A stretch of 64,000 bases of DNA from Treponema sp. (GCA_024402595.1 JAKSTL010000002.1:15964-79963); one strand, 5' to 3'; numbered from the stretch's first letter, positions 2,508 to 6,784 are shown. Translations and numbers: made by a program. Notes: generated by a model from the letters alone, not told the origin.

Positions 2508-5500
2508 TTATTTTACCAAAATAAACTCAACTCGTCGATTCTTCCAGTTATTATCTGTATCTTTTGAATTAACAACAGGCTTTGTACCGCCCATACCTTC
2601 AGTTATAACATTGTTTGCACTAACGCCTTTCTTTACAAGATAAGCCTTAATTGCATCTGCTCGTTCTTTGGAAAGTGGCATAAGAGCTCTACCCCAAACT
2701 CTTGGATTATCCACTGTTTCTTCATCAATGTTGTCAGAAATACGGTTTGCATGTCCTTGAATTGTAACTTTATAATCAGGGAACTTTTTAAGGATTTCTG
2801 CAATACGATTCAAGATTTCCACATTTTTCTGAACCTGTTCAGCTGTAAGCTTAGCATTTGTATTCTGGAAGTTTGCTGCATCAGATTCAAAAATGATTGA
2901 AGGAACTGCCATCTTAAGAACATTACCTTCGCGAATAACAAGAACATCTACAGGAATTACACCTTCATAAACAGAAGTCATTCCAAGATTGTCAGTTACT
3001 GTAAATGCATAAGGATAATCCATAGCAGACTGAACTCGTTCTGCATTTCCAGAAGCATCTTTCTGCAAATTACTCAAACCATCCCAAATGATTCGTTCTG
3101 TAATCTGAGATTTTCCTTCTGTCTTCCAGAATGCTTTTCCTTTTGGATCGTTAATAACAAAAGACCAATTCTTAATTTTTGCTTTTGTTGTACCAGTCAG
3201 ACGAATGAACAAGTCATCATCCACACCATCGTTGTCCGGACTAAAGAACTCTGGAGCTGTCTGCACTCTAAGTTGAGGAGGAGTTGCTGTACAAATAAAT
3301 GGAGATGAAACTGAACTTACTCTGTTACCTTTTTTGTAAAGTACATCCAAAGTACCTGTAAAGGTTCCTTCACATGCATTTCCATCTTTATCGGCTCCAT
3401 TCCACTTAATTTCTGCTGGCAAAGATGGACGGTCTTTATCTGAAAGTTCATAAACAGAAGTTCCATCTTCTTGTCTAATATTAAAGTTCCATGTCAACAA
3501 ATCTTCTGTAACACTAGCTCTTATTTCAAAAATCTGCTGGTCTAAAGTTCCATCATCGTTTGGAGAAATACCTTCAAACTCAGATGTCAGATAAAGTTTT
3601 GTTTCTCTGTTATCCAGCACAATTTCTTTAATAGCTGTACTGAATGTATTTCCTGCATCATCTGTTGACGAAATTACAATACTGTATTTTCCATCTGCTG
3701 CGAGATTTCCTGATTCATCTGTACCATCCCAGTCAAAGTTTGTCTTTACACCATTCCAAGAAGTTTTCTTAACTACAGCATTTTTTTCATTACGAACTTC
3801 TACATTCCAAAGTTTTTCGTTTGTACATTCAGAAATTACTACAGGAATATTATCTTGATTTCCATCGGCATCTGGAGAGAAATAAATCCAAGGAATCTCT
3901 GGTACTAAATAAGGAGCTTTTGTATCCAACTCGAAAGCTTGAGTGCCCGCTTCTGCTGTTGAACCATTGGCCGCTGTAACAGAAAGTTTTGCAGTATACA
4001 TTCCATCATCACAGCGAACGCCATCATCACCATTACCATTCCAGATGAAGTTTGAAGGAAGTTTTTTGTTTTCAGATTTTGTATAAACTGTCTTTCCTTC
4101 TCCATCAGCAATTACAAAACTATATGCAACTACATCCTTTGTTTGAGTTATAGGATTAAAGGTGATTGTGTCTTTTACTTTGTTTGCATTTGGAGAGAAT
4201 GCAGTTTCTGTCATAGCCAGTAAAAGCTGAGTTTCTGTAGTATCAAAAGTAACAGTATCAATTGAAGAAGCGCCACCTTTATTTCCAGCCATATCTGTTG
4301 CAGAAAGAACCATAACATATTCGCCTTTTTCTGCAATTCCACCTTTATCATTAATACCATTCCATACAATGCTTTCTGGTGGGAACTCGCCTAAATCATA
4401 AGAACGAACTACGGTTTCATCGGTAACAGATTTTATTTCTGCCTTCCAGTTTGTTACAGGAGAACCGTTTGAAGGTGTAATCATAATTGAGAAAGTAACA
4501 TCAGCTTTTGCACCTGCACCAAAAACTTTGTCAGACACTCTAACTTGAGCAACAGGTTTTTCTGTATCAAGAACAAATACTGGCGAAGAAATCTTTGATG
4601 GAACATAGCCATTTAAATATTTAGCAGTTACATAAGCCTGATATTCACCATCTGGAAGTGGAGTTCCTTTATCATCATCACCGGTAATTGTAATTGCCGC
4701 TGGTGGGATTGCACCATCCTTTGTTTGATTAAAACTTTTTACAAGTTTTCCAGATTTATCTGTAATTCCAACTTCCCATTCTGTAAGCTTATTACCAGTT
4801 TTTTCTTCTGGAACTGGAATTGTAAGATTAAGCATAACCGAAGCTAAAGAACTGTCTGTTCGAGGAGAAAAATATCTTGAACCGTTGATGAAAATATTTG
4901 TAGCTGGCTTTTCTGCTGAATAAATGATATTTGAAATTATAGACTGTGGAGCTGTGTTTCCGGCTCTATCGGTAGCTGTAATTTCATAAGAATAAACACC
5001 GTCAGGAATCTGAGTGCCTTCATCATCTGTTCCCTTCCAACTGATAGTTTCTGGGGCTGCATTTATCCATTTATAAGTTTTGAACACTCTTCCGTCAATG
5101 CCTTTAAACACTGCGGTCCATTCATCTTCAACAGAACCTTCCTGGGTAACTTTGAAGGCTGCTTTTGCTCCTTCACCAAATATTTTATCTCCTGGCTGAT
5201 TAAGTTCAATTTCAGGAGCTACAGTATCAACTACAATCGTAAACTCTTTTGTACGACCTTCGTTACCATTATCATCAGTTGCGGTCAAATAATAATAATA
5301 TGTACCGTCTGGAGCTGTTTCACCATTATTCATAGCTCCATTCCAAATAATCTGCTCTGGAATCTGAACTCCCTGTTTTTTTGCAAGAAGCTGTTTAAAG
5401 AAAGATTTAACTGTTAATTTTGAAGGAAGAGCCACCTTGTTTTCGATTGTTCGGACTACATTTTTATTTTCGTCCATAATAACAAGGCTCCATCCCTGAA

Positions 5501-5651
5501 CATATCGTTTGTCGCTAATACCAGGACGAAGCACTAATTCATCCTGAATACCATCGTTGTTTGGAGAGATATAATAAGTTTTAGGAGCAGCAAAAAGTCC
5601 TGTAAGAACACAACCTGTAATTACTAAAGCTAAAAATATTGATTTTTTCAT
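2508..5651 (-). CDS. Periplasmic protein with about 8 FlgD-Ig/CHU_C-like repeats and a C-terminal OmpA peptidoglycan-binding domain
   Basis: Repeated [FI]SPxxDG ... WxGxxxxG...DGxY units. The C-terminus has I-x-GHA...LSxxRAxAIxxYL...NRRVEF. Confidence 0.88.
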   Translation of the reverse strand: MKKSIFLALVITGCVLTGLFAAPKTYYISPNNDGIQDELVLRPGISDKRYVQGWSLVIMDENKNVVRTIENKVALPSKLTVKSFFKQLLAKKQGVQIPEQIIWNGAMNNGETAPDGTYYYYLTATDDNGNEGRTKEFTIVVDTVAPEIELNQPGDKIFGEGAKAAFKVTQEGSVEDEWTAVFKGIDGRVFKTYKWINAAPETISWKGTDDEGTQIPDGVYSYEITATDRAGNTAPQSIISNIIYSAEKPATNIFINGSRYFSPRTDSSLASVMLNLTIPVPEEKTGNKLTEWEVGITDKSGKLVKSFNQTKDGAIPPAAITITGDDDKGTPLPDGEYQAYVTAKYLNGYVPSKISSPVFVLDTEKPVAQVRVSDKVFGAGAKADVTFSIMITPSNGSPVTNWKAEIKSVTDETVVRSYDLGEFPPESIVWNGINDKGGIAEKGEYVMVLSATDMAGNKGGASSIDTVTFDTTETQLLLAMTETAFSPNANKVKDTITFNPITQTKDVVAYSFVIADGEGKTVYTKSENKKLPSNFIWNGNGDDGVRCDDGMYTAKLSVTAANGSTAEAGTQAFELDTKAPYLVPEIPWIYFSPDADGNQDNIPVVISECTNEKLWNVEVRNEKNAVVKKTSWNGVKTNFDWDGTDESGNLAADGKYSIVISSTDDAGNTFSTAIKEIVLDNRETKLYLTSEFEGISPNDDGTLDQQIFEIRASVTEDLLTWNFNIRQEDGTSVYELSDKDRPSLPAEIKWNGADKDGNACEGTFTGTLDVLYKKGNRVSSVSSPFICTATPPQLRVQTAPEFFSPDNDGVDDDLFIRLTGTTKAKIKNWSFVINDPKGKAFWKTEGKSQITERIIWDGLSNLQKDASGNAERVQSAMDYPYAFTVTDNLGMTSVYEGVIPVDVLVIREGNVLKMAVPSIIFESDAANFQNTNAKLTAEQVQKNVEILNRIAEILKKFPDYKVTIQGHANRISDNIDEETVDNPRVWGRALMPLSKERADAIKAYLVKKGVSANNVITEGMGGTKPVVNSKDTDNNWKNRRVEFILVK

Positions 5652-6784
5652 TATTTTTCTCCTTCTGTAGACTCATTAAGGGTCTCATCTGTAAGTTCTT
5701 CATCATCAATCCAAAGTTTGATTACCGGTGGAGTCTTATCTTTAAGACCAAGATCAACATCAGCACCAAAAGAAACTGCATTTATTCCACCATAAAGCTG
5801 TTTCCATGCACTATTTACAGACATTTCACTCTGGCTCCATCCATTTTTTGCCAGATATTCGCTGTTTTTTACATCAAAAGTAAATCTGAATGTAATGCCA
5901 ACAGATGGAATTACATTTACATAACCCTTTGCCAGCTCCAGTACATTAAACTTATCGGAAACACTCACATAGAACATATCTTTTATAGAAAGCTGCAGGC
6001 CCATATCCGCAATAAGATTCATAAACATTGGAGTTGTTAAATCAAAGGAACCAGCCAGCTTTATCACTTTGTTTGAATAGAAAGTTCCCGCTGCACCAGC
6101 TTTAAGTGTTGCTATGGTTGGAAGGCCTAGTTTTGCGTCATAAAGTGTAGCGCCATCATCTGTTTTTATTCTTGGCAAAGTTGTGTGATTAAGATTTTTA
6201 CCAAGATTCAAAAGAGATGCTCCAAATCTAAAGTCTTTTACTGGACCAAGATTTCCCCACACATACAAAAAACCAAGGTTTGCGGAAAGAAGCCAGTCTG
6301 TATCTGCACCCCAGAAAATGCCTGTGTTCAGATTCATTCCGATATCAAGTTTATCTGTTATTTCCTTTGAAAGGCCAGCTTTCATGGTCATTGAATTACC
6401 AACATTCAAAGGGTCAAGAGAACAGAATGTTCCGTTGTAATAACCGGACAAAACAGCCCATTTAAATGGAATTAAAATACCAGCCTGTAAAGCATCTCCG
6501 AACTTTTCCCCATCACCAGAACCAAACAGTAAAGTATTTGCAAGATTCAAACCAACCCGTTGATTTGAAGCGGTAAGGGCTGGATTTACATTCATTGCTT
6601 CAGGACCAGCGTAAAACAATCCTCCTCCTGTAACAGAAGCTCCATTTGAAAGAGTTCGTGGACTTGAAAGCTCATAGAAACTGTCGCCGCCAACCGATGG
6701 ATTGTAAAAATAATCTTTTGCAAAAGCAGTGTTTAGTAAAACAAAAATAGAAAGCGTGATTATAGCAATTTTTTTCATCTTCAT
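5651..6784 (-). CDS. Outer-membrane beta-barrel of the FadL/PorV/UPF0164-like type
   Basis: Signal peptide, SPRTLSNG...AMNVNPAL N-terminal motif, FGASLLNLG and LPTxxxLxAG strands. The stop codon overlaps the downstream ATG. Confidence 0.65.
   Translation of the reverse strand: MKMKKIAIITLSIFVLLNTAFAKDYFYNPSVGGDSFYELSSPRTLSNGASVTGGGLFYAGPEAMNVNPALTASNQRVGLNLANTLLFGSGDGEKFGDALQAGILIPFKWAVLSGYYNGTFCSLDPLNVGNSMTMKAGLSKEITDKLDIGMNLNTGIFWGADTDWLLSANLGFLYVWGNLGPVKDFRFGASLLNLGKNLNHTTLPRIKTDDGATLYDAKLGLPTIATLKAGAAGTFYSNKVIKLAGSFDLTTPMFMNLIADMGLQLSIKDMFYVSVSDKFNVLELAKGYVNVIPSVGITFRFTFDVKNSEYLAKNGWSQSEMSVNSAWKQLYGGINAVSFGADVDLGLKDKTPPVIKLWIDDEELTDETLNESTEGEK

Follow-up and report, generated by a model that had tools for sequence, protein, structure and literature searches.

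Does a protein that ends in a single strand of an immunoglobulin (Ig)-like domain still hold the neighboring protein in which the rest of that domain is encoded? The question is raised by two adjacent genes in a 64,000-nucleotide (nt) stretch of Treponema sp. DNA (GCA_024402595.1, JAKSTL010000002.1:15964-79963), the whole of which is called the window here. P0001 encodes an outer membrane beta-barrel followed by a tail, and P0002 encodes a rod of Ig-like domains that ends in an OmpA_C domain. We conclude that the two are products of a gene fission and propose that they are rejoined by strand pairing into a tether between the outer membrane and the peptidoglycan, and we put the probability of this reading as a whole at about 0.62. 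It starts from an observation in the original prediction, namely that the barrel ends in the very strand that the first Ig repeat of P0002 lacks, and this observation is confirmed to be real and not a product of chance.

Fused homologs and the point of fission

In the window, the barrel and the PF00691 domain lie on separate open reading frames (ORFs), and in fused relatives they lie on the same polypeptide. A six-frame search with a barrel profile covered 121 genomes of the family Treponemataceae and located the barrel in 108 of them. The barrel is part of an open frame of 1354 to 1429 amino acids (aa) in genera g4, g16, g23, and g24 and in two g10 genomes, with the end of a contig cutting the frame at 1102 aa in one g4 locus; in the remaining genera, the open frame of the barrel has about 330 to 430 aa. 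Single fused ORFs were confirmed in 15 retrieved loci, including those of T. denticola (AAS12542.1, UniProt Q73L37, annotated as "OmpA family protein"), T. putidum, and T. phagedenis. Outside the family, most matches in the phylum fall in frames of 1335 to 1483 aa, and those of some families fall in frames of about 880 to 1010 aa. The fused single-ORF homologs that had been predicted are therefore present in T. denticola, T. phagedenis, and most other spirochete lineages searched. No barrel match was found in two families of the phylum sample (53 and 37 genomes). A word-index search had returned no longer relatives of P0001, which is a false negative, since the six-frame and full HMMER scans found many.

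In fused forms, the junction has the sequence ...LGVxDTxAPxIxV-xYPExx-YISPNNDG. In split forms, ...GLxDTxAPxIxLW is followed by a short acidic stretch and a stop codon, and the downstream gene then begins with a signal peptide, 3 to 8 residues, and YISPNNDG. In the window, DKTPPVIKLW (10 residues, positions 5711 to 5740, with 19 mostly acidic residues after it) and APKTYY (6 residues) together place 16 residues before ISP; the corresponding register is 16 in fused forms and 15 to 16 in the internal repeats of P0002. This identical 16-residue register indicates that fission put a stop codon, a ribosome-binding site, and a signal peptide between strands A and A' of the first Ig domain (Ig1) and that nothing else was lost. 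As read from the sequences, junction comparison shows a gene fission at the level of a single strand, and it places the split exactly after the DTxAPxIxL strand, where the original prediction had put it.

Ig1 is thus encoded without one strand, as donor-strand complementation demands, and this strand A is present in the same register in fused homologs and internal repeats. APKTYYISPNNDG comes immediately after the P0002 signal peptide, and the linker-and-strand motifs DTVAPEIEL, EKPATNIFI, DTEKPVAQV, DTKAPYLVP, and TATPPQLRV are all present before the internal repeats. The motifs and positions quoted in the original prediction are all found, and the register bears out its statement that repeat 1 lacks the first strand that the internal repeats have. 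The split form was seen in more than 100 distinct loci, including those of complete genomes and of isolates such as T. bryantii and T. parvum.

Two minor observations concern the lengths and frames of these genes. The length of the fused form varies widely between spirochete families, from about 880 to 950 aa in f38 and f43 to proteins of up to 1965 aa; it presumably tracks the number of Ig repeats, and rod length may follow the width of the periplasm. In one complete g20 genome (G020:C1:1224322-1225241), the barrel match falls in two frames with a break at profile position 307, which is a frameshift or sequencing error.

Direction and number of fission events

An IQ-TREE phylogeny of 69 barrel domains (mixture model, quick search) was rooted on the two most distant outgroup loci. 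Each of the ten loci sequenced from other families is fused and lies outside the Treponemataceae group, and the 43 split rows form one clade with 100% support in the Shimodaira-Hasegawa-like approximate likelihood ratio test; the minimum number of state changes on the tree is 3. Because the outgroups are fused and the split rows form one clade, the single-chain form is strongly supported as ancestral, in agreement with the barrel-Ig(n)-OmpA ancestor that had been postulated.

Two fused g10 rows (L035 and L040) are nested deep inside the split clade. A tree joining the 43 split rows without these g10 rows was rejected by the approximately unbiased test (p = 0.0012), for which the group was defined after the tree was seen. 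The g10 fused junction, VIKLF-EEQPDRPA-FLSPNNDG, is 3 residues longer than the ancestral one and resembles a tail joined to a mature N terminus, which points to an apparent re-fusion by loss of the stop codon and the signal peptide. The g6 locus (L064) is placed outside the main split clade. Its tail ends in IKIEFPEED, so that the ancestral xYPE is kept and the cut lies about 4 residues later, and its spacer is 41 nt long; it is probably an independent second fission in the same loop. Judged from these junctions and the tree, the history comprises one main fission, a probable second fission that took place in a different genus, and a re-fusion confined to a single genus.

Selection on the barrel tail and probable imprint of a ribosome-binding site

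The tail motif G..D...P.I is kept in 115 split barrels, down to 27% identity, with G346 conserved in 100%, D349 in 99%, P353 in 97%, and I355 in 90% of them. The 13-residue tail window ranks 44 of 342 windows by conservation, the conservation score being 0.59 for the tail, 0.50 for the barrel, and 0.15 (top-residue frequency) beyond the Trp. Across 110 distinct split loci, all synonymous codons occur at the invariant G, D, P, and I (GGT/GGA/GGC/GGG, GAT/GAC, CCT/CCA/CCG/CCC, and ATT/ATC/ATA), which indicates that purifying selection acts on the tail at the amino acid level.

The residues that follow have a different origin. A Shine-Dalgarno-like core lies 3 to 18 nt 5' of the downstream start in 40 of the 43 split loci, mostly inside TGG GAG GAA (W-E-E) or TGG GGA GAA (W-G-E); in split barrels, TGGGAGGA or TGGGGAGA codes for the C-terminal W-E-E or W-G-E, and the Trp codon TGG is present in 87 of the 110 split loci. 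Since the core sits there in nearly all of these loci, the conserved Trp and acidic residues are probably the imprint of the downstream ribosome-binding site and not a protein interface. The acidic tail, which had been taken for a protein feature, is thus largely the Shine-Dalgarno site of the downstream gene. An RNA signal has here been imprinted as an apparent "conserved protein motif," and reading it at the protein level would mislead.

Architecture of the two halves

The AlphaFold2 model of P0001, with 115 homologs in the alignment, has a predicted local distance difference test (pLDDT) score of 90.5 and a predicted template modeling score of 0.85. The model closes the barrel at residue 345, and the tail (residues 346 to 377) is coil outside the barrel, where the block-mean pLDDT drops from 76 to 49; residues 351 to 360 have a pLDDT of 76 without secondary structure in this barrel-only model. 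The even number of strands implies that both barrel termini are periplasmic. These features agree with the earlier description of a barrel ending in a linker strand and an acidic tail instead of a barrel strand. That the tail might be the final strand of the barrel, or a signal for assembly at the C terminus, was also considered and rejected, given the closure at residue 345, the even strand count, and the internal position of the motif in fused forms.

The top Foldseek matches of the P0001 model are 8gl6_F and 6h3i_F (template modeling [TM] scores of 0.56 to 0.63), chain F of type IX secretion system (T9SS) translocon entries, which we take to be PorV. FadL, including its NPA mutants, TodX, and TbuX come next, and the structural matches range from 0.46 to 0.63 in TM score and from 9 to 13% in identity. 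N67-P68-A69 (positions 6578 to 6586) lies within the N-terminal segment, comparable in place to the NPA of the FadL hatch, with N67 and P68 invariant and A69 nearly so among homologs. P0001 thus has the FadL-type architecture of 14 strands and an N-terminal helical segment with a conserved NPA, and this segment putatively plugs the lumen. P0001 matches no Pfam family at an E value of ≤0.1, and Toluene_X (PF03349) matches 1 of its 115 homologs, at 3.7e-4. Close relatives of P0001 are annotated as hypothetical proteins and come from metagenome-assembled genomes of rumen and gut Treponema.

P0002 matches Pfam FlgD_ig (PF13860) in six stretches (1.2e-39; 134.6 bits against a cutoff of 27), with overlapping CHU_C and Big_13 matches, and a count of the once-per-domain motif W.G..D.G...DG.Y gives 8 Ig-like domains. 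The spacer that they form would be about 30 nm long if extended, by our own estimate at about 4 nm per domain. The C-terminal domain matches Pfam OmpA (PF00691) at residues 941 to 1039 (1.6e-15; 57.6 bits against a cutoff of 27.2) and OmpA and Pal domains of the PDB at 4.8e-11, and, compared with the T. denticola protein, it has about 8 inserted residues. The best NCBIfam match of P0002, Lsa66_OmpA (NF053608, an equivalog model), spans about residues 20 to 457 and scores 300.6 bits, below the model cutoff of 700. As a side observation, CHU_C, the T9SS type B sorting domain, matches the Ig repeats at 1.4e-23 (residues 102 to 130 and others). The T9SS also pairs a barrel with an SPNGDG-type Ig domain (PorP/SprF with type B C-terminal domains), and a distant evolutionary link is conceivable.

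Do the halves still pair?

The ancestor was one chain consisting of a 14-strand FadL/PorV-like barrel, about 8 FlgD-type Ig domains as a periplasmic rod, and a C-terminal OmpA_C domain, by its domains an OmpA-type tether from the outer membrane to the wall with a long spacer. In the ancestor of a large gut/rumen Treponema clade, the new stop codon, ribosome-binding site, and signal peptide came to lie between strands A and A' of Ig1, with strand A (DxTPPVIxL) left on the barrel. Both halves would now be exported by Sec, which would bring the barrel into the outer membrane and its tail into the periplasm, and the tail would pair as an edge strand with Ig1 of P0002 and so rebuild the tether noncovalently. 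An outer membrane-to-peptidoglycan strut may reasonably be inferred from the domains, and noncovalent rejoining and the tether role together are likely.

The gene pair behaves as a unit. In the window, the stop codon of P0001 and the start codon of P0002 overlap by 1 nt (TAATG). The two genes are spaced by -8 to +11 nt in the majority of split loci and by -8 to +145 nt over the full range, relative frames vary, and a signal peptide begins the downstream gene at all split loci that were examined, as had been foreseen for the second half. In the same 121 genomes, the barrel was detected 108 times and the Ig part 107 times. Both are missing from 13 genomes (the ten of g14, G024 with its 1.1 Mb, and two drafts), the sole mismatch is a 63%-complete assembly with only a barrel fragment, and the Ig part is directly downstream of the barrel wherever the coordinates of both are listed. 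As far as these genomes can tell, such gene order and co-occurrence show that the genes are translationally coupled and are inherited or lost together. The A/A' loop seems to have tolerated a second cut and a re-joining, which suggests that pairing continues and is counted in its favor.

Several results weigh against the proposed pairing or the tether role or are neutral toward them. A linker construct of the homolog L020, in which the two genes are in frame, was modeled with AlphaFold2 as the tail, two stops read as Q (translation table 6), the signal peptide, and Ig1-Ig2. The model (pLDDT of 91) left the tail undocked, with tail residues 1 to 10 as coil at a pLDDT of 57 and the remainder in one helix with the signal peptide; an uncleaved signal peptide in cis is a poor mimic, and the alignment was unpaired with almost no coverage of the tail, so that the fused forms could not inform docking. 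The homologous Ig1 is modeled confidently without the tail (block means of 81 to 98), in a method that is insensitive to a missing edge strand. The original prediction had named the folding of Ig1 on its own as a result that would speak against it, and on this point Ig1 does fold confidently alone in the model, although in a construct that kept the signal peptide. The strand before Ig2 in the same model (PEIKLI) is a beta-strand at a pLDDT of about 96, which shows how this type of sequence behaves when covalently attached. Mutual information between the tail and Ig1, computed over 129 pairs, yielded no more than weak signals that phylogeny had shaped. A charge pair formed by tail position 8 and the last part of the B strand of Ig1 looks strong in raw counts (22/25/5/81), but it falls short of significance when only phylogenetically independent pairs are counted (5.6 versus 1.0; p about 0.125). 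No experiment on any family member was found in the literature, nor was any paper on the barrel-Ig-OmpA family or on gene fission with strand complementation.

The peptidoglycan binding of P0002 is likewise assumed. The canonical OmpA_C motif is TD(x)7NxxLSxxRA, in which Asp and Arg bind diaminopimelate (PMC5104382); P0002 has GHAN...LSKERA with an insertion, so that the Arg is retained and the diaminopimelate-binding Asp is replaced by Asn. GHAN also occurs in fused homologs. Treponemal peptidoglycan contains ornithine instead of diaminopimelate, and Tp0624 shows a comparable motif change (PMC5104382), which makes wall binding plausible; by this analogy, the altered pocket may reflect an ornithine-type peptidoglycan.

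The undocked linker model, the confident Ig1, and the nonsignificant covariation would all be expected if the halves had become independent after fission, P0001 serving as a channel, P0002 as a periplasmic or wall-bound Ig-OmpA protein, and the tail being kept for assembly, stability, or another partner. Barrel-less Ig-OmpA proteins do exist, as in Leptospira Lsa66, whose model P0002 matches. However, the tail motif is the same as the covalent strand before Ig1 in fused forms and is under selection at the amino acid level, and the adjacency, overlapping stop and start, joint presence and absence, and tolerated re-fusion also argue against independence, which we regard as unlikely but worth keeping in mind. 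Alternatively, the halves could associate through another interface, such as the periplasmic turns or the hatch of the barrel with Ig1, with the tail as a leash or secondary contact. The well-scored yet unstructured residues 351 to 360 would fit this arrangement, as would the fact that the missing strand is an edge strand that Ig1 may not strictly need; the exactly kept strand A register and its resemblance to interdomain strands that are modeled as beta-strands make it improbable. Strand pairing of the tail with Ig1 thus stands as our preferred reading. For the prediction that the tail completes Ig1 in trans, selection, coupling, co-occurrence, the second fission, and the re-fusion speak in favor, whereas the AlphaFold2 run does not.

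Two further explanations concern the nature of the locus itself. The order of an N-terminal barrel and Ig repeats recalls inverse autotransporters such as intimin and invasin, in which the repeats are exported through the barrel to the surface as an adhesin; one homolog is annotated as an autotransporter barrel, and the NCBIfam name of Lsa66 is fibronectin-binding adhesin. The barrel, however, has 14 strands, a hatch-like N-terminal segment, and a FadL/PorV fold in place of the 12-strand intimin barrel, its C-terminal tail lies outside the barrel, and no intimin or invasin barrel is among the structural matches listed. In addition, the OmpA_C domain at the distal end is a module that binds the wall in the periplasm, and the Ig protein of the split form has a Sec signal peptide only, so that surface export is very improbable. 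The window comes from a draft genome (201 contigs, 81% complete), and the split might be an assembly or sequencing artifact, a pseudogene, or a fused product made by frameshifting or read-through. This is hardly credible given the recurrence of the split in complete genomes and isolates, the complete signal peptides of the downstream genes examined, and the varying frames and spacings.

Comparison with known systems

Together with OmpA/OprF tethers, the system has an outer membrane barrel and an OmpA_C domain on peptidoglycan, and a survey reports OmpA, defined as barrel plus PF00691, to be the sole tether system of Spirochaetes (bioRxiv 10.1101/2021.05.31.446380). By the definition of a barrel and PF00691 in one chain, the fused relatives belong to the OmpA tethers and the window pair does not. 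The barrel here is a 14-strand FadL/PorV-like one with a hatch-like segment, unlike the 8-strand OmpA; about 870 Ig residues lie between barrel and OmpA_C, Asn replaces Asp, and in the lineage of the window the chain is cut in two. The pair would be an unusual variant of the OmpA-type tether in which the chain is cut within an Ig domain.

Neisseria RmpM with porins and Porphyromonas gingivalis PorP-PorE likewise have a periplasmic OmpA_C protein held noncovalently to a barrel, as is proposed here; such holding is the third mode of OmpA anchoring (PMC5104382), and PorE has been described (PMC12773672, PMC5053529). In contrast to those pairs, the present one comes from the fission of a single chain, and the proposed contact is that of a barrel tail strand with an Ig domain. 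No sequence relation of P0001 or P0002 to RmpM, PorP, or PorE was found. FadL/TodX and T9SS PorV share the 14-strand barrel and the N-terminal segment with a conserved NPA, but TM scores and identities are low and Toluene_X is nearly absent from the family. We know of no FadL or PorV with an Ig rod and OmpA_C. OmpM/SlpA of diderm Terrabacteria also combine a barrel, a long periplasm-spanning stalk, and a wall-binding domain, although the domains are unrelated (surface layer homology domain and coiled coil), their order is opposite (wall-binding domain N-terminal), and they are in one chain. OmpM has been shown to be both tether and channel (PMC10628300); by analogy, and because the barrel of P0001 is FadL/PorV-like, it may double as a FadL-like channel.

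In chaperone-usher systems, another polypeptide supplies the one strand that an Ig-like fold lacks, as would be the case here. Pilins, however, lack the C-terminal G strand and expose a hydrophobic groove, whereas Ig1 lacks the N-terminal edge strand A, so that "edge-strand augmentation" is a more accurate term than donor-strand complementation. Leptospira Lsa66 (NF053608) has FlgD-type Ig repeats and then OmpA_C, but it has no barrel, and P0002 scores below the cutoff of its model.

How spirochetes hold a fragile outer membrane across a wide, flagella-filled periplasm is poorly understood. With its barrel in 108 of the 121 Treponemataceae genomes searched, and in T. denticola, the family appears to be a candidate for the main tether. 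A strand of 10 residues is the minimal interface that the fission point marks out, and the fused and re-fused relatives are natural controls. The split Ig domain might further act as a reversible coupling through which the strut detaches and re-attaches, the loop having been toggled at least three times (fission, second fission, re-fusion); we hold this idea tentatively and at somewhat less than even odds. If it is true, a releasable tether could help as periplasmic flagella move under the outer membrane or as vesicles are shed, and the A/A' loop of this Ig type would be a ready-made natural tag-and-catcher site.

Gene layout and neighboring genes

The minus strand carries P0001, P0002, P0003, and P0004 in head-to-tail order, and Table 1 gives their coordinates.

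Table 1. Coordinates of the two halves, their parts, and the neighboring genes in the window
Feature	Position (nt)	Strand	Residues, length, and basis
P0001, outer membrane barrel half of split gene	5651-6784	minus	377 aa; ORF, translation, AlphaFold2 model, 293 homologs of similar length
Signal peptide of P0001	6719-6784	minus	Residues 1-22, end ...TAFA; read from sequence, helix 2-21 in model
N-terminal short-helix segment, hatch- or plug-like	6560-6718	minus	Residues 23-75; secondary structure of model
14-strand beta-barrel	5750-6556	minus	Residues 77-345; AlphaFold2 strands, Foldseek matches
Periplasmic tail GLKDKTPPVIKLW, homologous to Ig1 strand A of fused proteins	5711-5749	minus	Residues 346-358; junction comparison, conservation, codon use
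Acidic extension, variable sequence	5654-5710	minus	Residues 359-377; last codons hold Shine-Dalgarno site
Shine-Dalgarno site GAAGGAG of P0002	5659-5665	minus	Within E-G-E codons of P0001
P0002, Ig rod and OmpA_C half	2508-5651	minus	1047 aa; ORF, Pfam/NCBIfam matches
Signal peptide of P0002, inserted at fission point	5586-5651	minus	Residues 1-22; no counterpart in fused homologs, present in every split locus examined
Ig domain 1, from APKTYY-ISPNNDG at strand A', without strand A	5229-5585	minus	Residues 23-141; register comparison
Ig domains 2-8, each after DTxxPxIxL-type strand	2964-5228	minus	Residues 142-896; Pfam, motif count
OmpA_C domain, predicted peptidoglycan binding	2511-2963	minus	Residues 897-1047; Pfam OmpA match
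P0003	1757-2503	minus	248 aa, with signal peptide
P0004, leucine-rich repeat lipoprotein	493-1755	minus	

The original prediction had regarded the genes downstream of P0002 as possible partners or cargo. Although P0003 and P0004 do come next on that strand, they were rejected as members of the system: P0003 was not found in 20 other genomes of the same genus, and the flanks of the homologous loci examined contained neither gene, so that both are neighbors and not conserved partners. P0003, the "second barrel" of that prediction, has only a weak match to DUF6048 and is a lineage-specific gene.

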